A stretch of 58,460 nt of DNA, counting the filler, from Sphacelaria rigidula (taxonomy: Eukaryota): assembly GCA_964200075.2 (NCBI GenBank). It is 10 parts of 10 records of this genome, joined end to end, with 100 filler letters (N's around TTAATTAATTAA, not from the genome) between each part and the next. Parts side by side here need not be neighbours in the genome. Positions count along the whole stretch, not along the records: positions 35,137 to 40,892 come from CAXNAA020024694.1; 9 more parts are not named here. One strand, written 5' to 3'. Positions 9,641 through 58,460 of this stretch are shown piece by piece. Position numbers and translations under genes: made by a program. Below the pieces are notes generated by a model. That model ran no database searches, was not told where the DNA came from, and saw only the letters and a program-made list of their open reading frames with translations. Within the stretch, counting starts at the first letter, position 1. The number at the start of each line of letters is the position of its first letter.

Positions 9641-10223
9641 GGCCGTTTCTTCCGGTTGGTTATTTCCCCTCGTTATTTGCAAATAACGAGGGAAAATAAC
9701 AAGATGGCTACTTACGGTTGGTTATTTAACAAAATTCTCGGGAAACAAATACGAGACGGGGGACATTTTACGAGATGGGCCATCCTGGCTTGTATTTTGT
9801 GGCAAAATACGAGACGAGATCGACTTGTATTCTCGTCTTGTAGTTTTCGTTCGAGACGCTGGTCGCCCTGGTGGCTCAGTTGGTGCCCTCGAAACCTTTT
9901 GACGGTTGGGTCGTGTGTTCAATTCTTAGAGCGATCTCGGATTTTTTCTCACACCATACCAAACAGTGGAGAGCGACCATGTCGTAGGTACACAAAATTC
10001 GACTGAACGGTCGACGAGGGAAAGGGGCTGCTGAACCCCTCTCGCGATGAAAAATAAAAGCAAGCACCGCAGAAGGAACGTGGGGTACCAAAAAAAATAT
10101 AAAATATAAAGCTCCTGTGTTGATCTTCCTCCTGTGTGACCCCGGCTGATGCGCCCACATATACCGAAAGGGGGAAACCGGCGTCCAGAATAGATGGGAC
10201 GACAATAGATGGGACGACAACAC

Positions 10224-11712: not shown

Positions 11713-11778
11713 GTACTCATTCGTTGCCTGCCTTAGTCGTGTGACGATTGACCACGGATCCCTTTCGAGACGGAGCAC
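11713..11778 (-). mobile_element. 5'-truncated 3' end of the LINE family
   Basis: Reverse complement gtgctccgtctcgaaagggatccgtggtcaatcgtcacacgactaaggcaggcaacgaatgagtac matches 36630-36694. Confidence 0.88.
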
Positions 11779-12129
11779 TAGGGGCGGAGGGGCAGGGTAT
11801 CGTGCATCACCCTACCGTGCACCGAGAGGTGCGATGCAGACCAAAATTCCGAGTGGGGGTGGTGTGACAATAGACAAAAATCTGTCCTGTTGAACGAAAA
11901 ACAATCAACCCGAAGTTACAGCACCCCATGGAAGGTATACAGATGAATGTACGAATATGTGCATATATCCGACGAAGCATGCCACAACGAAGATAATGTC
12001 TTGCCCATGATACCGATCCACGGGGGGGGGGGGGGGGGGGGACGGGGGGGGAGGGCAGCGAGCCGAAGGAAAAGGAAAAAAGCAAAAAAAANNNNNNNNN
12101 NGGTGCCCCAGCCCTTCGAGGCGTGGGGG

Positions 12130-12166
<37 letters not shown>

Positions 12167-12596: not shown

Positions 12597-12834
12597 CTGA
12601 TCGGTACACACGAATGTTGACACGCGCACCACCAAAAAATGGTACAATCGGGAGAACGAAGTGGAGGGCGGGAGAGCGGGAGGGGGGGGTGGGGGGGGTT
12701 AAAAGAGCTACTGCATACACAGACGAGTCATCACTTTCCATGAGCAAGAATTTTCCGTATTTTTGCGAGGTATGTTAACGATAAAACATGACAAATATGA
12801 GGACAACTGACGGTTTCCATATTATCATAACTAC

Positions 12835-12912
12835 AATTATGATTATGATTATTATGATCATTATGATTATTATGATTATTATGATTATTATGATTATTAT
12901 GATTATTATGAT

Positions 12913-12948
<36 letters not shown>
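12835..12948. repeat. (ATT/ATG)n plus (ACT)n microsatellite within the putative intron
   Basis: Direct inspection. Confidence 0.95.
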
Positions 12949-12950
<2 letters not shown>

Positions 12951-17649: not shown

Positions 17650-20600
17650 CACAAGTAGGCGCCTTTCGGGAGGACTTCCTGCTTCGCGCGAATATTTTTT
17701 TCTCAATGTTTGGTGGCTACTAATTCATAGCCGTCAGCGACAAAGCCTCAACCTTTGTCACGGTGAAGTTCGCGTGCTGCTGCGCCGGGGCGCATGTTGC
17801 GATATTTCTTGCTGTCAGCAAGATGTTGCTGCTGAGGTTGTGTCCAGTACAGGAGAATTGCTTGGCGGTGCAACTGAAGGTCGGATTCGCGTTCCCAAGA
17901 TGCTCTCCGAAGGCCTCGCCAGTGAGTTTTGTACATGACAGAAATCTTACCGCCTCGACCGCGAGTGATCTGGTGACCAGAAATGTGGGACACGGCGAGA
18001 CGAAGGGGTTGTTCCGTCACATCGTCGGCAGTAACGTGATAAGGCGGTGATTTGGTCGAATAGCTGTTAAGTACGTACTGCGTAAGACCGTCAGGCAGAT
18101 ATTGGGCATGTCTCTAGTGTCATGCGGATTGATGCAAGGTTTACAACGGTGCACAGAGACGCGAGATTTGGCCTCATGTCTTCGAAGATCGCGAGGAAGA
18201 TCGATATAAAGAAGTTTGTCACCAACAGGTTTGCCATCAGGTGAAGATGGCGAGGGCCCTACGGTCAGAATATTGAATGGTCTTGTCCACTTGGGAGATA
18301 CCTTAGTCTTCAAGACTGTCTCGTTGGCAGCTCTGTCAGCGCCTTGACGAATGGTTGCCAAACTGTTGTAAACCCAGACCCAACCTCCAACCTTCCACGT
18401 AGGTCGTTTGTGCATCAGATTGTAGAGAGCATTACCAGATCTCTCAAGGCGCGAGGCGTTGATAGCGTGTTGTTCACCCACGAGAGTGAAAGGTTTGCGC
18501 TGGCGTGCACGCGCTAGGTCATGGTAGGATATCTGATCCTGATCCAAGCCTTGGTGGCCATCGAAGGTGTGTCTCTCAAACACGGTGATGGGCAAACGCG
18601 GGTAGCGGCCGAGTTGTAATTCGTTCGGCGAAAGACCGGTAGCAGCATTGACGGAGTTGTTATAAGACAACACGACATGTGAGAGATGGAGATCCCAATC
18701 GTTTTGTCGATCGTTGACTACCATAGACAGCATCTGGGCCATGGTGTGGTTAACTCTCTCAGTACCACCGTTACCATTAGGGTGGTAAGCGCTTGTGGCT
18801 ATCTTTCGAATGCCCAGGAGCGTACACAGTTCGTCCGAGAGATCGGAGCATAATTGCTGACCATTGTCAAAGAGAAGCCGTTTCGGGCAGCTATAATGCT
18901 TGATACAGTCATGAACTAGGATATTAGCTGTGCCCGCTGCTGTGAAGTCTCCAGCGGTGACTGCGTACATGGCTGCGTGACGGCTGAAGCGGCCGGTAAA
19001 GAGTAAGATGTAGGTGTTGCCACGGTCAGTGGGCGGTAAAGGACCACAAAAGTCGAAAGACACGACGTGACTAGGAGCGTTGGGAAGTGCCATCGAAATA
19101 ACTGGCCAACGTATAGTCTGTCGTGAGGTTTTGCGAGCTTGATACTTGAAGCAACGCCGAATCCAGAAGCGAGTGGATACTTCCATACCTATCCACCAGT
19201 AGAAACCTTCGAGTAACGCTAATGTGCGCGTGACACCAAGGTGACAAGACAGGTCAGTGTGGCAGCCTTGCATTACCCACGGTCGCATAAAAAAAGGGAC
19301 ATATATCCGAGTGGGTTCATCGTCGAGTAGGCATGCATGGCGTCCAGTGGGCGCGGGTGAAGTTACACCCTGCTGGGGCGTAGGACGGCGGAGAAGCAAT
19401 TCGATTCCGTCATCAGTTGTGAAGATAGTACCTTCACGTGCGAGTTCGTACACCTCACCAGCGTTTGGTGGTGGCAGTGTGCCAATCGGGGCCAACACAT
19501 TGGCCGGGATAGGAGCAGGGCAGCCAGCACGGAGGTACCGCATGGTTGCGCGGCATAATGGTTCTGCTTGTTGTTCACGAGCCCAATCACGATGGGAGTA
19601 ACTGGCGAGAAATTCGCGCAGTTGGCATCCCGTCGGAGAGCTAACCAGACATGGTGGCTCAGGAAGCGGTGGAAAAGGCAACGAGGGGGAGGTGCCAATG
19701 TCGATGTGAACATCGGAAGCATCAGAAGGGGTGGGCACTGACGGGGCCACGGCGGGCGGCGATGTCGCAGTAGTCCGCGCCGAAGATTGCGCTCGGCGCT
19801 TGCGGTGAGAACGGCGCGTGGCGGGGGTTGTCAAGGCTCGTAGTGCGGTGTTGCGGGGAGCCGGTGCTACGCTGCTCGCAGGAGCAGTAGGTGTTGTCGG
19901 TGGCGGCGGGGCGCGGAGAGGGTTAGCGCGGGCGGCAGACCGAGAGCGCGTGTTGTCGGAAATGAGATGGACAACTGGAGGTGGCGAAACTGCAATATTT
20001 GCGCGAGGACTGATAATACGGAAATCAGCGAAATCGGCGTCTGCGGGTTGTAGCCCACCCAAGACTGCATCATACGATAGGGGGCGGGGGCCGCCCATGT
20101 GCATACCCGTCTCTGGACAATGAAGGTCAACGGCGTAAATGGGCGTTGAGAAACGCCGGATAGGATACACGCCCGTTGGAGGAAGGGGCAAGCGGGAGAG
20201 AAGGTCAGCACTCCCGTTGGTTTTGCCAGGGCGGTGTTTGACAGTATACTGATAAGCTGTCAGGAACTCTAACCAGCGTTGCACACGCGGGTTATGTTCG
20301 CCAACTTTGGCGAGTTGTTCAAGTGCTCCGTGATCCGTGTAGATTTGCAAAGGTACATGGAACAAATATTGTCGAAGGCGCTTTATGGCCCAAGTGATGA
20401 CTCCGCCTTCCAGCTCCAGTGGACTCCAGTTGGCCTCGTTTGGAAGGGTGGCGCGACTGATATAGAGGATGGATAATAGAGCCATCGAGTTGAGGCTGAT
20501 TCAGGACCGCGCCGAACCCGTCGGTGCTCGCTCGCGCCTGTATGTAGTTGAAAGAGGAGAGAGCCGTCTTGTACAGCATCCCAGTCCGGGAAACAAAATG

Positions 20601-24856: not shown

Positions 24857-27800
24857 TCACTTACTTCGAAAATGTAAATTACGCATTTCCCTCCTGCTGA
24901 ACTCCAACCACTCACCGTGAGGGTATTTCACTCGCCAGCAGGGATCAAGGCAATCATATACCTCGCCGGTCCCTACTCCTTCGCCCACTCCGTCGTCCGC
25001 AGACCTTTTTACCTGTGTTCCTATCGGGTACATGATCAGCGCCTCTTCCCTGTCTTTTGTCTGTGTGGACTTGTCCCTGTTATATTGTGGGTAGAGTCTC
25101 ACCGACGGGTGACACATATCCCATATGGCATGAAACACATCTAGTTGGAGGGGGGGAAAGCTGTCCAACACTTCCGCTTCCGTCAGCCAGTCGGATTCGT
25201 GTCCATCCTGGTACCTGCCTTTATACTCCCACACCGTTGGGATAGGTGCCGTAGTTGTACGCTTCCTGTTCGTTAGTGTGTACAGAGGTGAGGCTACTGT
25301 AGAGATGTCAGCGAGTCCTAGGTCCGGTCCCCATGCTGAGCGAACTCATCCTCCATCGCGTGTCTCAGTTCAGGTCGACGCTGATGGAACGGTTTCAGAG
25401 CCGTGGTGGAGACGGTCCTGTGGCGTAGTTTCCTTCCTTGCATCGATACCTCTACACTGGAATAGGGGTGACTGTTACCTCCCACGGACCCGTCCATCTT
25501 TCGTGTGATAGTTTTTGGTGCTGACCATTCCTATGCAACGTACTTTCTAGCTCTCGAACTAGCATCAGATCTCCCACTTTAGCCGACGTTCCTGGGGAGT
25601 GCCTTATGATTTTTGTGTTATGTCTCTGTCTTTCGTTTTGTTTGTTCTGCTCTCTTGTTTCCAGGACCCGCTTAACCTGGTCTAGTTTTCGTTTCCTCTG
25701 TTCAACGAAGTTGTCCAGGCCTGTCGCGGAGTCATTACCGTCTATCTGTGGTACTAGGATGTCTAGAGTGGTTCTAGGATCACGGCCGAAAAGGATTTGA
25801 AACGGGGACATGTTGGCAGGGACGGATGGGTCTGGAAGTGTACGTTTGATCCAGCATGGGTGATCCACACACTCGTCCCACCTGTCAGGCCATGATTTGC
25901 ATAGTTCGGATAGTGTGTCATGCATCCAAGCCCCCGCCCTGTCAACTGCACCCTGACCTCTCGGATGATCTGCGGGTCCGTAGTCCAGAGATACCCTGAG
26001 CCATCTGCATAGATCCCTTACTGCTGTTGCTGCGAACTCTCCCCCTTTGTCGCTGCGGATAGATCTGGGCATGCCGAATGTTAGACACAGGTTCAACAGG
26101 ATGCGGGCTACCGGTGCTGACTCCTTCGTAGGTGTGGGATATGCGAAGAGGAACTCCGAAGCTCGGTCGACGATCAGTAGTATGTATCGATTGTCTGATG
26201 CGGATGTCCGGTGCATATATATCCTGAAATTCGATTTCTAGCACATCCCAGGGAAGTAGAAATCGGCTCGGTAGCATTGCCACTTGTTGAGTTTGTGCTC
26301 TTTTCCTGCGTCTGCATCCGCATAAGAGAACGCAGTCACGGCAGTCTTTGTTCATACTGTTCCAGTGAAAATGGTTTCGTGGCAGAATCGTGGTGTGCGC
26401 TACTCCCGTGTGTCCGTAGTGTGCGTGTACAAGTGCTATTAGGTTAGGAACAAGCTGTCGTGGAATGGCTAGCGTTGGTCTATTCTTTTTTTCCGGTGTA
26501 CCATAGGCCATGGTCGTCTATGATGTAGCTATCTGATGTAGTTCCTGATGCCTTTTCCGTCTCGTTGAGTAGAGGAGCTCGGATCTGGCTCAGGTAACGG
26601 TCGTTTTCTGGTTCTCGATTAGGCTGGGTAAATCAGATAGAGTATTGATCGCTCTGTTAATGACTGAGTCGTGACCACTGGGCGAGTCACCTCTGGAGTG
26701 GTTGTTTTTGTGTTCCTCGACGATAATAGGACTCGATTCCTGGCTGCTCAACAGTGTCTGCTGAGAGTTTGTGTTGGTTGGGGGGATGCTCTGCGGTACG
26801 GAAATGGCTTCGTCGGTTATGAAATCCTTGAGTCTGACAGAACGGGTGCGGGCTCTGCTAGATCTGCGTGGTTCATTTTGGACGTCATGACACAGAGCTG
26901 CCACCTTTTCTAGGGCGAATGGCATTTCCGACAGCTGAGTCATCGTTCCGCTTACTTCCGCTTCATATATTTGTGGGTCAGATATCTAGCCAGGTTCTTG
27001 CTGTGTGAATTCATTTGTAGGGGGGTCCTTGCTGTCTGTCGGGGCTGTGATTGACCACAACGCTGTGATGGAAGCAGATCCCACTAGTATCCCTGTCTCT
27101 TCCCCTAGTTGGCTCAAGAGGACTCCATCCAACACCGGTGTGCCTCCTTCAACTTCTCGAAAACTTGTTGCTTTGCGTCGTTCCAAGGGATTTTCAGTTT
27201 TCTAACGCGTTTTGACTGAAAGCGAGGATCACGTAGGACGTCGGTCAGGGGGGCCGCGATAATGCTGTAATAGTCGACGAAAGATCGCATGTAACCGGTC
27301 ATGCCGAGGAAAGCCCGTAGCTCTTCTACCGTGTTCGGGGGTGAGAGTTTACTGACTGCCTCGATTTTGGGTGGGGCCGGACGTCTTCCCTCGCGGTCGA
27401 TCACCATCCCCAGGAATTCCTGGTTAGGCATGCACCATGACGACTTCGCAAAGTTAACAGAGTATTTTGCTTCCAACAAGGCCGAGAGAACTTTCCGTAT
27501 TGGGTATAGGTGTTCAGAGAGTGTTTTGCTGAAGATGAGGATGTCGTCCAACCATACCTGAACTTCTTTACCCTGTGAGGGAGCCTAGGGTTTTGGATAT
27601 ACCTCTGGTGAAGCCGGATGGGAGGTTTTTCAATCCGAAGCTACACCTGTTGTATTCCCAAAGTTGCCCGAGGGCGTCTCTGAAGGTTGTTTTGTGTTTG
27701 TCATTTTCCTCGATTTCGAGTTGAAAGTACCCTGAGGCGAGATCTAATGTGAAAAAAATATTTGTTACCACTTAGCCTGTCGTGCATGCTCTCAATGTCC

Positions 27801-29180: not shown

Positions 29181-31317
29181 NNNNNNNNNNNNNNNNNNNN
29201 NNNNNNNNNNNNNNNNNNNNNNNNTTAATTAATTAANNNNNNNNNNNNNNNNNNNNNNNNNNNNNNNNNNNNNNNNNNNNACAAAATACCCCCCCCCCTC
29301 CTCTTCTCTCCCCCCAAACAACACGGTTAGCTCCCCTCTCCCTAAAAAAAAAAAACACCCCCCCCCCCCCCCCCCCCCCCCCCCAACCATCTCTCCTCCC
29401 ATCGCACCGGGGGATGAGACGAATCTTCCGGGCATCCTAAGCGAATAGTGCCAAAACGCTCGTGATTCCTTCAACGCAATACAAGAGTGGAAGCAATAAT
29501 AATACGGGCGATTATATCACATTGTATAGCCCCATTGTGCAATTTTGGCTCACGCTTTTTTACGGGAACGTTAGGGGATTCATTTTTACAAACCAAACTG
29601 CACGCGATTTTTAAATGACAGCTGAAGACGTTCAACAAAAAGTGCACGCACTTTTGGTCGTCCTCCACAAACTCGATAATCGAACGTGCATTCCCCCACA
29701 TTTTTGATAGCGCCGCTAGCTACAGTATCATAGCCCAATCACTAGTGCCCCCGTTGATAAAACAAAATGTGATACCGAAATTCACAGTGTACCAACAAGC
29801 ATTAACATGCAAAATCAATTAGAACCGGCGAGTGGTGCGCACCGCTGGGGTTTGGCAAATGCCCTCTTGTTTCGAGGTGTCGAAGGAGCCGTGAAATATC
29901 GCTGGGCAACATATTGTGTGCACAACAAAGTCCAAGGCAGTGCTCCGCAACAAACAGCACACAAGACTAAGTGCAGTATATTTCGAGCGCTTCAGTGGAA
30001 CTTCGGATAAAGACAGCATGATCGTCTGCAGCTATCGAACATACGCTGGGGCTTTCTATGAGTGTCGCTACGCTGCGCAGGCATAACGTGAGGCCACAAC
30101 TGGTTTGCATTTATTTTGTCCGCACTCCGCAACAAACGCCGATTTTTGACATCCCATATGTTCGGCCGTGAATGGACATTTCTTCCTCCGTTGCTCGGTA
30201 ATCATTAGCACTCGACACTAAAATGTAGACCGCCGCAATGTGACCATCTTTTACTGATATTATGAAAATAGAACTTTCCAGATTATACAGAGCGACGATC
30301 TTCATGTTCTCGTGAAGACGCGGGACGACATTACGAGCTGGGCCAGCAGAAACGGATTTAAGCTCTCAAAGCAATATCTCATCGACACAGACGAGTTGGG
30401 CCGTGATCCGCATTTCGTATTTATCGTGTAATCAAGGAGAAGGTAGCCATCTGCTCAAAAGTCTGGGTCAATATTTTCTCGTTGATTAAATCCCATGTCT
30501 AGTAATTCCTATACCGTACGGTTATATCGCCCATACCAAAATCTATATAAAAACCTGAACGATACATTCAGCGGATGACGACGACTTTTGGTGTAGACGT
30601 TCCTTGGAGCACGGGGAGACTATAGATACCCTCACCTTCACCTAATTACTTTTCTACCTCGAGATATGGCGCACATAAGATTTCATACTAAGATCAATAT
30701 ATTACGAGCAGACACACTGGATGCCCCGAATTTAAATATCGCGTCTCAGTGTTCGAGAGTTGTGCTATGAAATTTGGTATGAAGAACCGGTAGTGCATAG
30801 TAGAATGAAATAAAACAGGCTTTATTATTTCTCCCAATTTTTTTCATTTGTTTTCGTGTTTTTAGGGAAGTTTTGAGGAGAAATGGACATTGCTCTTGGG
30901 CCTCGTCTCAATTTTTCACCTCAATTTTTATAATTGTGATCTGAAACTTGGGCCTTTTTTTTTATGTATTAAAAACCCGTTATCACAAAGCCCTTTTTCA
31001 ACAGCACGTTTTTCAACATAATTTTTTCAAGTAACCCTTGTTACGTGATTGACGCTATCAACATTGGAAAAGCAGTGTTCACCGCTCTCTACAAGGCGTG
31101 TGGGCATAATTTCAAATTCTGGGGCGCGCGAGAGAGACAAATCGCTCTGCTGGCGTGTCGTGGTGTACGGCCCGCTTTATCTGTCTGTACTACTGTAACA
31201 TATTGACCGAACAACAAATGATGGGCTGCGTGACGCAAGACGAGCAATAAGAACACCAGCTTGCTGCACCAAGTGACTGTAGAGCTGACGGATGGGCTTT
31301 TCTGCTACATCGTATTA

Positions 31318-35136: not shown

Positions 35137-36695
35137 GAGAATGGTGAAGAAGATGACAGAATGTGCAAAAAGTGTCATGATGCTAGACGCGGAAATATCG
35201 AAATATTTCGATATCTTGCAAGGAGTTGCACAAGGTTGTACGTTATCACCCACTTTATTCAAGATATTCATTAGTAACTTGGTAATAGCAATAGATGCAG
35301 CAAAGCAAGAGGTCAAGGCGGGTGAAGATATTGTATCATGATTGATGTTCGCGGATGATTCTGTGGGGGTTTCAGGAACACCAGAAGGATTACAGAAACA
35401 GATCGACAAGGCTCGAAAATACACTAGGAGATGAAGAGTGACAGCGAACGTCAACAAACGCGCGGTACTTGTCTGTAACGAAGATAAGAAAAGTCCGGTA
35501 GAGTTTAAATGGAAGTGAGGAGAAGAGGAATTGCTGGTCGTAGACCAGTATACATACCTTGGCGTAGAGATATCAAAACACTGTTCTTGGGATGCGCACA
35601 TGAACGAAGTAATAGAAAAGGGCAAAGCACCAATGGGTAGAATGGACGTGATCCTGAGAGACCCGCACCTAGACACTGAGAGCAAGAGATGTATCCTGAT
35701 GAGCGTGATCGTACCAAAGCTGCAATATGGAGGAGAAGTACGGGAGGGGAACGTAAAGTCGGTGGAGAAGTTGGAAACAGTACAGGTGGCAGCAGCTAAG
35801 AAAGTACTTGGATGCTCGAAAATGACGAGTAATACAGCTTTGAAAGCAGAGTTGGGAATGTACTCACTTAAAACAAGTAGAGCCACGAGGAAATTGCGAT
35901 GGCAGTATAGCGTGAAGAACATGCAGAGAAAGAAGTTGCCAGCTATTGTTGAGACGGCTGTACGGAAGAAAATTACGAAAGGACGGGCTGGAACAAGGTG
36001 GGACGAAGAAGTCGACAAAGTACGGAAGGAGACAGGAGGAAAACGAGACAAAATACTGTCCATAGGTGAAGGCGCGGCGTACAAGACAAAAGTAAGATAC
36101 ATGATAGGAATAAGGGGAAAAGGAGCGCTCAGACGCAAAGTAGAAGAGGAATAGCACCCGACGATATACGGGTGGTTGAGAGAGGGGACAGAAAAAGGAA
36201 ATAGATTTGCATGGCCCCATGGATGCTGCGAAAAATCGGAGACTGCGACATCGGGTGGGGGACCTGGACCTTGCCAAGAAGAAGAAAGAGATTTACCAGT
36301 AGTCGAAAGGAGGAGGACGTGGGTGCACAGAACTGTCCCTGTGGCAAAGCGATAGAGAGCAGAAGTCATATAGCTGCAGAATGTGAACTATACAGAGGGG
36401 AACAAGACGTGCTAGAGGGGGAAATGCGGGACGTGAACGAAGATGGCATGAAATCGCTTGATGCAATGGACAGTAGGGGGGAAACGGTGGCTGTACTAGG
36501 AGATAGATGGTGGCCAGAGACGGCGAAACAGGACGGGGATAAGATATGTAAAAGGGCTTTGTGTATTTTATGGAAGAAACGTTGTGAGCGCCGGAATGTT
36601 GGAGGCGTCCCTATTTGGAGTGGGAACGATGCTCCGTCTCGAAAGGGATGCGTGGTCAATCGTCAAACGACTAAAGCGAGCAAAAAATGAGTACG
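35137..36695 (+). mobile_element. Decayed LINE ORF2 3' half (RT C-terminal domains plus terminal zinc finger) with its natural 3' end
   Basis: LQGVAQGCTLSPTLF, MFADD, YTYLGV, ALKAELG and CPCG...ESRSHIAAECELY. Stop TGA at 36688-36690, then GTACG and a C-run. Confidence 0.94.
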
Positions 36696-36871
36696 CCCCC
36701 CCCCCCCCCTCCCCCCGAAATGGTGAGACATTCATGAGGCCCTGTGTAACCTGTGGTTGTCTTTGGAGTTGGCGATAGCAGAAAACGAAGCAACTCATTG
36801 GATGCTGTCATACAAATGCAGGATAATCAGTAGGCTTCGGGCCGAACAATTTCAGCAGGATGCAGCTCACT

Positions 36872-37320
36872 CTTTATGCGACTCGCTGAACACATGACGG
36901 CGTTTCGCGTTTGGTGATTGATTGCGAGCCTGGTCCGGCGTAAACCCGGCGTGCTCCGTCTCGGGTTTATAGGGGTGCGAGGTCAATGGCCTCATAACCA
37001 GGGCATTGCTGATCATGAGTACCCCCCCCTCCCCCCCCTTCCCCCCTTCAGCCTTGTACAGCGAAAACCTAGCGTGCTCTGTCCCGGCTTCGTAAGGATG
37101 CGAGGTCAATGATCAGATGACTACGGCATGCAGGATCATGAGTACACGCCGGCCTCCCCCCGGTGCATCCTTCATGCGACTCGCCGAACACATCACTGCG
37201 CATCACGCTTGGTGATGGCGAGCCTGGTCCGGGGAAAATCAGCGTGCTCCGCCTCGGCTTCGTAGGGATGCGAGGTCAATGGTATCATGACTAGATAAAG
37301 ATCATGAGTACAACCCCCCT
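36872..37320 (+). mobile_element. Three head-to-tail copies (about 150, 100 and 150 bp) of a retroposon 3' end related to the LINE end
   Basis: Units at 36872-37022, 37050-37150 and 37170-37311 share cgtgctc.g...gcgaggtcaatg...gatcatgagtac and are separated by C-rich tracts. Confidence 0.85.
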
Positions 37321-37519
37321 CTTCATGCTTTAGGGCGACTAAAATCGTCATGAAAAAGACTTTGCCTTTTGTGGGGGTTCCAGTCCTCGAAACCCGCTCT
37401 GAATTGTACTTCGTGTGCACCAGGTTCACCAAAGGGGCGCGATAGTTGGACATTGTTCCACATACTATTTGCAACGTGAGAAGTTTTTATCTGTGCTGGA
37501 CGCAGCATCATGTCCTTTG

Positions 37520-38030: not shown

Positions 38031-38950
38031 TTCACGTTGTGCGGATGTCTGCGCAGGCAGAAGAGATGGGCAGCGTAGTCGAAGAGGTGAAGGAGGTCGG
38101 AGCGGGGAAGCCGACAAGGAGCAAGACTCCGTTGATGAGCGGGGTAGGGACGCACGTGACAGGTCAGTGCTCTCCAGTCCTCATCGCATATGCATGGCAA
38201 TCCGTCCATTGCTTGATATGCCATCCTATAGCGTAGTGACTCCCTGGAAAATACCGTATCCCTTCCACTTCCTGGAAATGATTTCCGTCATCTCGATATC
38301 GACCCCTCTCTCCCTCATGATACTTGTCTCGATGTTTTTTATATTTTTTACGCCTTAGTCTACAATGTCGTTATGTTCGACTTTTGTTTTTGTTCTTTTT
38401 TCTTTCCTTCAGCGAATGCTTCATTTTTTTTTTCTTTCCTTGGGTACTTCTATCGTGTGAGCACGGCTGGACTCCTGGGGGGTCAGTCAAAGTGCGACAA
38501 TCAATAAAAAAATCAATCAATCACGAGTGTGATGAGGCATTGAATATGCACCCCACAAGCCCGCCCGTATCCATGGTCAGGGTCTTGTTTTCTAGCCATG
38601 CCCTCACGATCTCAACGGTGGAAAGCATGGTTGGGTATAGATAGCCACCATATCTACATATTTTGCGAGATTCGCACGCATCGGCAGCCTGATCCAACTG
38701 GCCTTGCCTGACCCGCCTGGCCGTTGTCGGACGAGAATCACCGCCGAGGCAGGGTCACCACATTCCTTCTGTATTCGGCATTCGATATTTGCACGTCAAC
38801 ATATCCACCCGCTCACGAGTGCGCCCCGGATGCAAACTAAAAGCAAGGAATGATGCCCAAAAACGCGAGGGGGAGATGTACAAGCCTCATGACCTAATGA
38901 CCACAGCGCCGCAGTGATAAGACCTTCGCATAGATCGTGCATATCCAGGG

Positions 38951-39015
38951 GGCGTACTCATTTGTTGCTTGCCTTAGTCATTTGACCATTGACCACGCAT
39001 CCCTTTCGAGACGGA
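38951..39015 (-). mobile_element. 65-bp 5'-truncated LINE 3'-end insertion with TSD
   Basis: gcatatccaggg at 38939-38950 and 39016-39027 flanks the reverse complement of tccgtctcgaaagggatgcgtggtcaatggtcaaatgactaaggcaagcaacaaatgagtacgcc. Confidence 0.92.
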
Positions 39016-39376
39016 GCATATCCAGGGTACGGACTGAAGAGGGGGGGGGGGGGTTGGGGCCGGGTGGGGGCGTCGATGCTGAACCTTCCAAGAAGTAGTA
39101 TCTTTGTGACTGTGTCAGGACGGATGAAGGTGTCGCCTGCAAGGAACTAGCAGCGAGCAAATAGCCGATTGAGCCTCAGCGACCAGGATGATGCGGGAGT
39201 AATCGTGAGCAGTCGTCCACATCCGCGTGGGTTGCCCGGATTACAGTTGCGGCAGTACTCGTGAAGCGTGGATTTTGCGACATCTATCTTCCAAATGATT
39301 CCGGTGCTCAGCTCAGCTTCGGCGCGGATTCGTGAACGATCGAGCTTCAAACGGACTTGATTTTTTCCCTACCAGG

Positions 39377-40180: not shown

Positions 40181-40992
40181 ATGCGAACGAACCTTGGCTA
40201 GGCTATTCTACTCCTGAAGCGGTGGCATCGGGGGCAGGCGGGGGCGGTCGCGATGGTACTGGTGATGGGGGTGGGACAGACTCTCAAGACGGCTTTTCCG
40301 GCAGGGGTGGGGCGAATGTGGGGAACGGCGGAAACTCTGCCGGTGACGTAGACGAGTTGGAGTTTAACATGGACGCTATCGACCTGTCCGACATGAAGGT
40401 GACCCCTGCGCTTCTTCTCCATGTGCTCTTCATGCGTTATGCCATGAGTTTCTATCTTGATTTCGGGGCGAGTTATCATAATAATGATATTAAAATGGCT
40501 ATTCCTGTTTTTTCGCACATTAGCCCGATCTCTCGAACCCGCGGTCACAGACGTACGCTCGCCTCTCCAGTACCTTCACATGAGATCCCAACATAAACAA
40601 CAATATAATAAAAAGAGAGGGATGTCAAGAGAGTAGGAGAGAAAAAAATACCCCGCCCCCCCCCGCTGGTCCGGCGAGAACCCGGCCTGCTCCGTCCCGG
40701 CTTTGTAGGCGCAGACCCTCGATGAGGTTGGCGTCGGTTGGCGATGAGGCTATATAACACATCGCTCACTACGTAAGCTAGGCAACCAGGTTACCGATTT
40801 TTTTGCGCGCTTGCACTTTTTTGCGGTAACCATAATGGTAGTCGAGCTAGATCATGTTGTGCGGCGTGGGAGAACCTCAACTCCGCACAATGNNNNNNNN
40901 NNNNNNNNNNNNNNNNNNNNNNNNNNNNNNNNNNNNTTAATTAATTAANNNNNNNNNNNNNNNNNNNNNNNNNNNNNNNNNNNNNNNNNNNN

Positions 40993-41367: not shown

Positions 41368-41590
41368 ATATGAACTATAATATATGAACTATAATACTAT
41401 GAAATGTAATATAGTTCTTATAATAATATATGTATTAACTATAATATTTTTAAATTTTTAAATATGAAATATAATATATGAAATATAATATATGAAATTT
41501 GATATATGAAATTCAACATGAAATCCAATATATAAAATTTAATATATAATTTAATATAGGAAATATAACACATGATACAATATGAATATA
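41368..41590. repeat. AT-rich low-complexity tract
   Basis: atatga/ataata repeats. Confidence 0.9.
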
Positions 41591-41591
41591 A

Positions 41592-42167
41592 GGATCTCTA
41601 CAGTCTACGGCAACTGACCGCATCCGCCAACGCTTCGGCAAAAACCAGGGGGCACACGGCTGGGTGTCCCCCCCCCCCCTTACCCCCCACCTCAAAAACT
41701 CGAATTTTCGATCTTGTGGCCCACGTGTCCCGAAAAAAAAAAATCGCTGCCCTGCTGCACTAGAATTGATCTGGAGTAGTGCAGTACAGACAGTACTAGA
41801 CAGTACAACACTTTTGTCTGTACTGCCGCGTACGTGACATGGCAGTATAGATTGAAGATGACCGGTTACACGCAGTGCGAGCTGGGCCAGTAGCGATCGG
41901 GGGAGATCTACGTTTCAGGTCTTTTTACATAAACACAGGGAGCTAGTTAGATCTTTGTACCTCGCCTTGACCTCCATATCCCTTAGGTTTCCGCCGACCG
42001 TTCTTTTGGTATCCCCCCACCCTTTTGGTGCCCCCCTCCCAAAAGAAATATATCTGCAACCGTAAGCTAGGGTCAACATCTCTCATGGTATTTTCCTAGC
42101 GGTATTTTTTCCTCAAAATAATATGTTGCGAAATACGAGGGGAAATAACCAACCTGAAGAAACGGCC
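41592..42167. mobile_element. Harbinger-like MITE sequence with a GGATCTCT left end and a GGCCGTTTC-family right end
   Basis: taa|ggatctctacag... matches the reverse complement of 57927-58056. 41755-42167 matches 10908-11337 and ends gaaacggcc|tca. Confidence 0.72.
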
Positions 42168-42170
42168 TCA

Positions 42171-42580
42171 GGTCGGATGTTATGTCAAACAGATTTTTGC
42201 CCCACGTGTTGTCCCGATTTGGGACGTTTGACCCACCTTTTGACCCCCAAGCCAAGAAAACCGCCAACACACGTCTCGGACACTTTGCATCACCTCACGA
42301 AGAGGAGCCTAGTCTCCTTTTCAGATTCGCTTGGCTCTGAGGTTCGAAATTGGCCGCGGAACAAAGATTTGCGCGTAAAACTCCTTGTTCCGCGGCCAAT
42401 TTCGAACCTCGGAGCCGAGCGAATCTGAAAAGCAGACTATGGGCTCCTCTCAGTGGGGTGATGCAAAGTGTCCGAGACGTGTGTTGGCGGTTTTCTTGGC
42501 TTAGGGGTCAAAAGGTGGGTCAATCATCCGGAAAGTGAACAATCCGTGGGCCAAACATTTGTGTGCCATAACATCCGGCC
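42171..42580. mobile_element. 410-bp almost wholly palindromic MITE, flanked by TCA/TAA
   Basis: Arms pair from gg(t/c)cggatgttatg inwards to ttcgaaattggccgcggaacaa and ttgttccgcggccaatttcgaa. Confidence 0.92.
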
Positions 42581-42658
42581 TAAGGGCGTGTCTTGGCACA
42601 TTTCTTTTCGATCGAACATGTGCGGTCGATTTTTTTTTTGCCGATCTGATAGGTCCAC

Positions 42659-51534: not shown

Positions 51535-51657
51535 GGTCAATAGTTGCAGTAAGGAAAAAGTATATTGCGTGAAGTACAGCCTATTGCGCCTACTGGAGTA
51601 GGCGCAATAGGCTATGCTGTGCGCAACACCCTCATTTTCTGTTGCAACTATTGACCC
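51535..51657. mobile_element. About 120-bp hairpin MITE
   Basis: Outer arms ggtcaatagttgca/tgcaactattgacc. Perfect 17-bp inner stem agcctattgcgcctact-gg-agtaggcgcaataggct. Confidence 0.8.
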
Positions 51658-52418: not shown

Positions 52419-52464
52419 AGGTCAATGGTCACACGACTACGGCATGCAAGATCATGAGTACACG

Positions 52465-52511
<47 letters not shown>

Positions 52512-52600
52512 CCCCCCCCCCCACCCCCCCCCCCCGCCCCCCCCCCCCTCTCCCCCCACACCCTTCCCCCCACGTACGCCTCTTCCCGCCCCCCCCCCCG
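52419..52600 (+). mobile_element. Retroposon 3' end followed by a long poly(C) tract
   Basis: aggtcaatggtcacacgactacggcatgcaagatcatgagtacacg, then about 45 uninterrupted C and a further C-rich run. Confidence 0.82.
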
Positions 52601-52704
52601 CTACNNNNNNNNNNNNNNNNNNNNNNNNNNNNNNNNNNNNNNNNNNNNTTAATTAATTAANNNNNNNNNNNNNNNNNNNNNNNNNNNNNNNNNNNNNNNN
52701 NNNN

Positions 52705-52742
52705 GGCATGCAAAAAATGAGGACGCCCCCCCCCCCACCCCT
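52705..52742 (+). mobile_element. Retroposon 3'-end remnant plus C-run
   Basis: ggcatgcaaaaaatgaggacgccccccccccc. Confidence 0.6.
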
Positions 52743-53930: not shown

Positions 53931-54005
53931 CGGGGGGTGTACTCATGGGTGTACTCATAAAAATGTATGCCATAGTCATCATGTACTCATGGGTGGGGGG
54001 GGGGG
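53931..54005 (-). mobile_element. Nested or slipped retroposon 3' ends
   Basis: Reverse complement reads C-run, acccatgagtaca, tgatgactatggcatacatttttatgagtac, acccatgagtaca, cccccc. Confidence 0.65.
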
Positions 54006-57739: not shown

Positions 57740-58056
57740 GTGTTCTTCAAGGTACGGACGGCAGTGGGGGATTTTTGGTTGGCATACGAAACCATACCTA
57801 AATGTGTACCGAACATCAGAACATTCCGGTATGGTCCGGCAGGATATCGAGCCCTGTTCGGAGCAACCCGGTATGTATGGTTCCGAACAGACCCGAAGGA
57901 TGTTTACTAGAGTCTGTCAAACAAATATTTCGGGACATAGGCCGCGAAATCGAAAATTCGAGCTTTTGAGGGGGGGGGGGGGGCATCCAGCCTGCTGTCC
58001 CCTTGTTCACGGCCGAGGCGTTGAGAATGCGGTCGGCTGCCGTGTACAGAGATCCT
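57740..58056. mobile_element. MITE fragments shared with segments 6 and 8
   Basis: 57740-57886 is similar to the reverse complement of 33225-33353; 57927-58056 is similar to the reverse complement of 41592-41735. Confidence 0.7.
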
Positions 58057-58460
58057 TGGCATGGAGACCGCTGAGATGACGGGCACACCACCCCTCCAAG
58101 CTCATCACCTACCATGATTATATATATGGGATCATAGTCCGTGTCGTGTGCCTCGACTATCGACCATTAGTCCGGGCAAATTTGGCGATTCGCGAGATAA
58201 TGTTGATGTTGCTACTTTGGCTACAGGCTGTCGCTACCGTGCGCTCGTGTATTGTACATAAATGTGTGTGAGCGTTGCCGGCATCCGAGGCCATCGGGAC
58301 AGGGCGGGCAAGGAATAAAAGCAAATATACGAACCTCGCGAAAGCTCGCCAGACTTTTCGGTTTCCGTCAGTGTTTGTTGATCAATTTCTTTCAAGGGTC
58401 GGACAAGTAATGATTCGGCTGGAAATTACTTGGTTTTAGTATAATGAGTCGACTCGTGAC

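Follow-up and report, generated by a model that had tools for sequence, protein, structure and literature searches.

The 3' end of a brown-alga LINE, probably of RTE-X type, with short non-autonomous partners and a terminal cytosine run

We have analysed a 58,460-nt stretch of the genome of the brown alga Sphacelaria rigidula (assembly GCA_964200075.2; the whole stretch is referred to here as the window) and describe the 3' end of a long interspersed nuclear element (LINE) found within it. The best explanation of the data as a whole, to which we assign a probability of roughly 0.7, is that we have here the end of an RTE-X-type LINE from a brown alga, which is accompanied by short non-autonomous partners and terminates in a run of cytosines, (C)n. 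Judged from sequence, the identity and anatomy of this end are very probably as described here. The window is made up of ten segments of 5,756 nt each, with N44-TTAATTAATTAA-N44 spacers between them; as the segments are unlinked, the sites discussed below are samples from ten places of one genome rather than parts of a single locus.

Structure of the 3' end

The 3' part of a decayed LINE copy lies at 35137-36694 (+), running from the C-terminal half of the reverse transcriptase (RT) to the end of a single open reading frame (ORF); its left end is cut by the segment edge and it carries frameshifts. Residues 845-1360 of a 1360-aa relative (P0003) were aligned by tblastn to 35138-36687 at 58-64% identity, and the RVT_1 domain match in this copy is weak. 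The final frame of the window copy (36205-36690) has the C-terminus ...KASKK and closes with the stop codon TGA at 36688-36690, after which come GTAC (36691-36694), a single G (36695), C14 (36696-36709), T and C6 (36711-36716). A preliminary description of this DNA had reported an ORF ending in TGA and followed by GTACG and a C tract, and this is what is found across 36688-36716.

Immediately upstream of the C tail (C14 T C6; 36696-36716, +), an alignment of eight tails together with the depth of public contigs delimits a conserved 3' tail of ~68 nt at 36628-36695 (+), which is common to the LINE and its non-autonomous partners. This tail extends from GTGCTCCG to the octamer ATGAGTAC plus a purine, lies within coding sequence apart from its last bases, GTAC and G, and corresponds to the last 21 codons of the ORF. 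Since the recognised tail falls inside these codons, there is no 3' untranslated region (UTR). Between P0003 and a second relative, P0004, 20 of the last 21 residues are identical, which is jointly the highest value among twenty 21-column blocks, with 309 of 422 aligned columns (73%) identical overall. Tail blocks that include the octamer with its TGA are also kept in the partners at 36872-37022, 37049-37145 and 37162-37311. As these partners are non-coding, retention of the octamer indicates that the constraint acts on the nucleic acid and not merely on a stop codon. The LINE and its partners thus share a specific 3' tail, in the manner of a stringent pair of a LINE and a short interspersed nuclear element (SINE).

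The family can be placed through its proteins. A 211-aa piece of the window ORF retrieved seven longer proteins (P0001-P0007) at 57-64% identity, three of them named 'unnamed protein product [Ectocarpus sp. CCAP 1310/34]', and Ectocarpus proteins are also present in the 90% cluster of P0004. A single ORF encoding an APE-type endonuclease followed by RT is found in the close relatives, with Exo_endo_phos at residues 170-414 and RVT_1 at 740-989 in P0003 and the same domain order in P0004 (1328 aa); the window copy spans only the part equivalent to residues 845-1360. All complete relatives end in ...GAPSRKG(C/R)VVNGQMTKASNK, as does the window copy. When the C-terminal 161 residues were searched against shorter proteins, 2,395 relatives were recovered, two of them from Sphacelaria rigidula itself, which belongs to another brown-alga order; the occurrence of relatives in both Sphacelaria rigidula and Ectocarpus indicates that the family is broadly phaeophycean. 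A HMMER search against representatives gave 95,793 unnamed RT relatives, the next nearest at no more than 39% identity, and the tail-coded C-terminus was not shared by LINE RT relatives at this level in the 17 C-termini inspected. A protein atlas search returned generic RVT_1 clusters only. Three further proteins (P0013, P0176 and P0177), filed under bacterial metagenome-assembled genomes (Parasphingorhabdus sp., Hyphomicrobiales bacterium), are 79% identical to the LINE C-terminus; most likely these are algal contigs that were mis-binned.

Support from independent sequence data

The position of the end recurs in sequences from outside the window. Among 125 stored proteins, 59 reach the tail-coded block and 66 do not, and 51 of the 59 stop at the same place. 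The other eight read on, and in all eight the additional residues are MST, EYA, RVR or GVR followed by a proline-rich stretch, corresponding to a translated GTACG and C-run. Scanning of metagenome contigs with an 18-nt tail pattern gave at least 119 loci; among the matches listed, 117 were chance and two were related (L039 and L067, from ENA and JGI contigs). Both related loci have an intact ORF end, TGA, GTAC (CTAC in L067) and G, followed by C7 or C11-G-C5 and then unrelated sequence, and neither extends to a 5' end. The same pattern gave one match in viral contigs, which was due to chance. In the window copy, L039 and L067 alike, the stop codon stands 4 nt before the conserved end. This arrangement (stop, 4 nt, R and (C)n) is the very short 3' UTR with a simple-repeat end that is a trait of RTE elements and, along with the common stop of the proteins, upholds the initial proposal of a family essentially devoid of a 3' UTR.

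Contigs from four public runs (X1, X3, X4 and X7, from three studies; three carry the label 'organism A', one of these being RNA only by guess, and the fourth 'algae metagenome') were placed on 36450-36760 at a likeness of at least 80%, yielding 49,290, 20,727, 37,809 and 2,060 pieces, respectively. These contigs are evidence of presence, and are silent on abundance per genome and on RNA ends. Over 36626-36669 their depth sums to ~15-25 times the value for 36560-36614. Behind 36709 and 36716, the loose ends share a consensus of 12-17 further C's and agree little thereafter; other copies therefore diverge once the C-run has been passed, and neither a conserved UTR nor poly(A) follows it. At loose ends before 36630 the consensus is a C-run and a G (358, 290, 306 and 66 contigs of X1, X3, X4 and X7, respectively), and joints that go back from 36705-36716 to 36629-36632 reveal tail-only units arranged head to tail.

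These tail-only units, of ~68 nt, were a recurrent observation. They begin at the same base (GTGCTCCG) in hundreds of contigs, as in the window copies 39018-38954 (-) and 11779-11713 (-), often stand directly behind a C-run, and succeed one another head to tail at periods of 76-87. Random 5' truncation does not give so sharp a 5' boundary, which could instead reflect a stop of the RT, processing of the RNA, template jumping or a minimal element. A second peak of contig depth was seen at 36505-36548, upstream of the tail, accompanied by joints from 36545-36555 to 36617-36633 ('skips 61-90'). This peak indicates an abundant deletion derivative in which some of the ORF end (around ...GDRWW...) is joined to the tail, and which may be an element like the RTEX-N1 of Ectocarpus discussed below.

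Given how readily homopolymers generate errors in sequencing and assembly, the C-runs might be artefacts, and one assembly gap of 10 N's (12092-12101) does adjoin C/G homopolymers. The same structure is nonetheless seen, with unique sequence beyond it, in the window, in ENA and JGI contigs, in the four runs, in the read-through proteins and, in the portion available to us, in a published library curated by hand, so that an artefact can be regarded as practically negligible.

Recurrence of the terminus in the window

The window contains 10 copies of the octamer ATGAGTAC, compared with 1.27 expected (mean of 100 shuffles, with a maximum of 5; none of the 100 reached 10). A C-run of at least 5 lies within 15 nt downstream at seven of the nine exact sites whose flank is visible, against a background of 0.0175 per site at 200,000 random window positions. 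By our own arithmetic, the chance of such a result at this rate is below 1e-10, and the enrichment of C-runs over background, the test that had been set for the proposal, is therefore clear. The two sites without a C-run (53958 and 53990) fall inside a compound cluster that itself ends in A and C6. A variant octamer, ATGAGGAC, stands at 52717-52724 behind tail homology and is followed by G and C11; the other ATGAGGAC matches, at 12797 and 38184, have neither tail homology nor a C-run. Poly(A) after the terminus was found at no site in the window, nor in the contigs, L039 or L067. The expectation that downstream flanks are C-rich and never poly(A) is accordingly borne out, and a LINE with an L1-like poly(A) end was rejected as a candidate, no terminus having poly(A). 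The recurrence of the terminus also stands as first described, while some of its positions need small corrections: the site given as 37150 is the octamer at 37138-37145, and that given as 53940 is in fact three octamers.

Directly downstream of the LINE, three non-autonomous units (A, B and C) sit head to tail, each in the C tail of its neighbour, with the same tail common to all three. Unit A (36872-37046, +) has the octamer at 37015-37022, followed by C7 T C8 TT C6; it may start as early as 36717, directly behind the C tail of the LINE. Unit B (37049-37161, +) is 5'-truncated, with the octamer at 37138-37145 followed by ACGCCGGCCT and C6. Unit C (37162-37319, +) has the octamer at 37304-37311 followed by AA and C6, and self-BLAST aligns 37170-37321 with 36872-37031. 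A 3' end of ~60 bp common to the LINE and to short tandem non-autonomous units is thus found at 36872-37319, as well as in the contig depth and joints. Searches of 36500-37500 for Rfam families (E up to 1) and tRNAs (ARAGORN) gave no match; units A-C were accordingly rejected as true SINEs with a tRNA, 5S or 7SL head.

One way to form such arrays, and the long C tracts, would be amplification of a single insertion at the DNA level, by unequal crossing-over or replication slippage. Tandem Repeats Finder (TRF) does call an array at 36927-37161 with a period of 123, as well as a C homopolymer at 52465-52571, and the backward joints of the contigs, with their periods of 76-87, have the form that such a process would leave. 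The array copies match at only 74%, however, and so are diverged and do not reflect a young duplication. The three units, moreover, differ in length and in their 5' truncation points and are 74-78% alike, as expected of separate events, which favours successive insertions over recent DNA duplication, and the contig joints show many C-run lengths as well as filler letters. Amplification of one insertion is therefore quite improbable as the origin of the arrays.

Further copies are scattered over other segments. A tail-only copy of ~66 nt at 38940-39027 (-) has its octamer at 38954-38961 (-) and is described in the next section. A second tail-only copy (11713-11779, -) starts with GTGCTCCG, has a C-rich 5' flank and ends in the octamer at 11713-11720 (-), beyond which the segment spacer interrupts its 3' flank. 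The feature at 52419-52604 (+) consists of a tail truncated at its 5' end (52419-52461), which is preceded by C-rich sequence and carries the octamer at 52454-52461 (+), and a C-rich tract: ACG, then more than 130 nt of C-rich sequence (C46, C11, C12, C12 ...) up to the segment edge. The copy end at 52705-52740 (+), its left side cut by a segment edge, carries the variant octamer and then G, C11, A and C4. The compound cluster at 53932-54005 (-) comprises C11 ACCC, octamer, a 24-nt tail piece with octamer, ACCC, octamer, and A C6, with ATGAGTAC at 53990-53983, 53958-53951 and 53946-53939; it reads as very short stacked copies. At 40656-40709 (+), C9 and G precede a fragment of a non-autonomous body (40666-40709, 86% identical to 36930-36973). 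A second decayed LINE copy, in segment 1 (56-1957, +), corresponds to residues 333-948 of P0003, from the end of the endonuclease to RT; it lacks the 3' end and is internally deleted.

Some C-runs were observed apart from these copies. C/G homopolymers with no recognisable tail alongside occur at 12125-12164 (-; C31), 12022-12051 (-; C8 and C20) and 29358-29384 (+; C27), and one such homopolymer adjoins the 10-N assembly gap at 12092-12101. A dispersed repeat, present on opposite strands at 41590-41735 and 57928-58057, has a run of C12-C14 between two conserved parts (…GGCTGGRTG, C-run, …CTCGAATTTTCGAT), and could represent a composite or a further C-tailed element.

Insertion sites and a possible mechanism

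The tail-only copy at 39018-38954 (-) is 93% identical to the LINE tail, with its last 19 codons 100% identical to the end of P0003, and has an 11-nt direct repeat, CCCTGGATATG, on either side, at 39027-39017 and 38950-38940. This target-site duplication (TSD) lies at a non-homopolymer site and begins with CCC, as would be expected had a bottom strand, nicked behind GGG, been used to prime on C's at the end of the RNA. G and CC separate the octamer from the 3' copy of the repeat; being enclosed by the TSD pair, they imply, in this single case, that at least a few C's arrive with the insert. An element of reversed orientation, starting in G's, is excluded by the direction of the ORF and by the TSD. 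Elsewhere, seven of the eight visible 5' junctions are C-rich, so that the combination known from Ectocarpus, a (C)n 3' end with C-rich TSDs, is found here as well.

The C's might alternatively belong to the target alone. The endonuclease would then cut C/G homopolymers and RT would start unpaired at GTAC(R), with the C-runs representing a split or duplicated target rather than RNA. The seven C-rich 5' junctions and the 3' junctions, all of which are C-rich, are readily explained in this way, as is the abundance of C-runs without adjoining tails; the supplementary table of the Ectocarpus catalogue, as available to us, likewise describes TSDs as 'C-rich' and RTEX-2 as having '(C)n termini/TSD' (PMC12477816). 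Against this, the 66-nt copy at a non-homopolymer site still has G and CC between its octamer and its TSD, and the metagenome LINE ends carry G with C7 and G with C11, although the targets of these last are not known. Taken together, we consider a purely target-derived origin unlikely, and the C's probably belong to the inserted copy.

A third possibility is that RT adds untemplated G's to the nicked DNA end before or during engagement of the RNA, in which case the C's would be absent from the RNA altogether. This would suit the variable letters that separate GTAC from the C-run (G, A, AA, ACG or none at all) and the range of C-run lengths, from 5 to more than 46. It leaves the preference for C-rich 5' flanks unexplained, however, and in our view a homopolymer of a single base would need an unusually strict transferase. 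We therefore consider untemplated addition highly improbable.

If the C's do arrive with the element, the most likely mechanism, as we infer it, is the following. Target-primed reverse transcription (TPRT) would start where the nicked bottom strand ends in G's, and these primer G's would pair with the oligo(C) at the element's RNA end; such pairing with a G-run, which the preliminary description had also proposed, is plausible, the indirect evidence for it being the one TSD that starts with CCC, the C-rich 5' flanks and the head-to-tail arrays; whether it takes place at priming is, in our estimation, an evenly balanced question. RT would recognise the 68-nt tail, which would make the element a LINE of the 'stringent' type. 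Each insertion would leave a new C-run, in which later copies could land, and such insertion into earlier tails would give rise to C-rich TSDs and head-to-tail arrays, with slippage generating long C tracts. The fullest version of this model, in which poly(C)-dependent TPRT homes into the family's own tails, the 68-nt unit is a minimal substrate that is strung head to tail either through repeated homing or through template jumping onto other oligo(C) ends, and the family is a main source of long C/G homopolymers in brown-alga genomes, is put forward tentatively.

Several observations weigh against our interpretation. A conserved RNA fold could not be demonstrated in the tail: the full tail has 11 predicted pairs with one compensatory change, the properly aligned first hairpin has six predicted pairs with no compensatory change and three broken cells, and fold z-scores of single tail sequences range from +0.10 to -0.95. 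C-runs are generally common in the window, with 87 runs of at least 6 on both strands together, and by our reading of the run list only ~9 of the 21 C-runs of at least 10 adjoin a recognisable tail. The TSD is unambiguous in one window copy only, so that the presence of C's within TSD bounds is a case of n=1, and C-rich flanks on both sides suit C-runs as mere targets equally well. All four runs consist of contigs, in which no RNA 3' end is visible. Finally, the assignment of the window copy to RTE-X is indirect, through protein similarity to Ectocarpus proteins.

Relationship to known retrotransposons

The closest described elements are those of Ectocarpus, for which a transposable-element catalogue lists seven LINE/RTE-X families with 16,418 copies, amounting to 3.41% of the genome and forming the most abundant LINE group (PMC12477816; this and the following statements concern the parts of that paper available to us). 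RTEX-1a_Ec32 is annotated in the supplementary table as 'single EN-RT ORF; (C)n 3'', with TSDs 'C-rich', and RTEX-2_Ec32 as '(C)n termini/TSD'. The non-autonomous RTEX-N1_Ec32 (607 bp) has the entry '60 bp 3' end 83% RTEX-1/RTEX-2' and 'can be present in tandem', while RTEX-N2_Ec32 (188 bp) 'could be SINE'. The best blastp matches of the Ectocarpus RTEX families are RTEX-4_NV and RTEX-1_BF, and the origin of the non-autonomous heads was not found in that study either (PMC12477816). RTEX-1 and RTEX-2, with N1 and N2, therefore resemble the family described here in their endonuclease-RT ORF, (C)n 3' end, C-rich TSDs, shared tail of ~60 bp, tandem arrangement and very high copy number. The window copy differs in being decayed and in its protein identity of 57-64%, the consensus sequences having been compared by description only; it may represent another subfamily, or the difference may be that of another brown alga. 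As the tail is already recorded for these Ectocarpus families, the claim in the preliminary description that no such family had been described was wrong.

Within the available main text of PMC12477816, the shared 3' end is mentioned and the terms 'C-rich' and 'homopolymer' do not appear; the missing UTR, the octamer, the mode of priming and the tail-only units are likewise absent from that text. A literature search for RTE-X in brown algae turned up this paper alone, and one on poly-C tails in retrotransposons found no relevant discussion. Both the mechanism proposed here and the arrays of tail-only units with their sharp boundaries go beyond what is contained in the accessible parts of PMC12477816 and in the papers searched. 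To the catalogue entries we add that the 3' UTR is missing, that the tail is coded in the last 21 codons, and that the octamer is kept in non-coding partners; we further add one TSD beginning with CCC, tail-only units in arrays, and confirmation on independent data.

RTE-clade LINEs of Lepidoptera have an extremely short 3' UTR of simple repeats (PMC2887409), and the RTEX tails of green algae are (CA)n, (CAA)n, (CCAT)n and similar (PMC3747384, Table 3). As far as the accessible parts of both papers go, the lepidopteran elements and the RTE/RTEX elements of plants and green algae are like ours in having one endonuclease-RT ORF, a short simple-repeat 3' UTR and many 3' partial copies, as well as slippage that seeds simple-repeat families and SINE partners that carry the LINE tail. 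In those elements, by contrast, the repeated unit of the tail is two to seven nucleotides long, for example (CA)n, (CAA)n, (CCAT)n or (TTG)n, whereas the family described here repeats a single C and its recognised tail overlaps the end of the coding sequence. In the available part of the review table, LINEs of plants and green algae either lack a tail or end in (A)n or in repeats of two to seven nucleotides (PMC3747384). UnaL2 and UnaSINE1 of eel, like other stringent pairs, share with our elements a conserved 3' tail common to LINE and SINE, followed by a short repeat that is proposed to permit template slippage; there the tail is untranslated and its stem-loop proven, according to the portion of PMC3747384 at hand, whereas here it is coding sequence in which a stem-loop could not be demonstrated. 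A C-homopolymer LINE tail is rare among described families.

A homopolymer tail is itself familiar from mammalian L1, whose poly(A) anneals to the T-rich nicked strand. L1 and the present family are alike in having such a tail, TSDs whose first bases match it, and a homopolymer-rich target strand that is able to prime. The two differ in that L1 needs poly(A) alone and mobilises unrelated RNAs, while the window family also retains a specific tail of 68 nt and has C as its homopolymer; L1 is classed as 'relaxed' in the available text of PMC3747384.

Homing into simple repeats is likewise known. LINEs that target microsatellites, for example in the R1 clade, insert in the same repeat as that of their own tail. 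Correspondence of tail repeat and target repeat, and homing into simple repeats, are common to these LINEs and to the family described here; they belong to other clades, however, and have strict specificity, whereas here at least one copy lies at a non-homopolymer site that merely starts with CCC. A literature search for microsatellite-targeting LINEs, using the name Waldo, found none. A C-tailed LINE would be a counterpart to the L1 system of poly(A) and T primer, and useful for the study of co-evolution between tail, primer and target. RTE-X probably seeds many C/G homopolymers, which is relevant to assembly gaps, replication slippage and structure-forming DNA.

Other features of the window

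Two ORFs of Ty3/gypsy-type pol were observed elsewhere in the window, at 18017-20500 (-), with RT_RNaseH, Integrase_H2C2 and rve domains, and at 25452-26237 (-), with an rve domain. Stretches that are reverse complements of themselves occur at 42157-42594 (the largest, a 438-nt palindrome at 85.5%), 51535-51656, 9659-9700 and 2559-2644. A coding-looking microsatellite with 9-nt and 3-nt units, (ATTATGATT)n/(TAC)n, occupies 12842-12949 and has His/Asn-rich and Ile/Met-rich frames.

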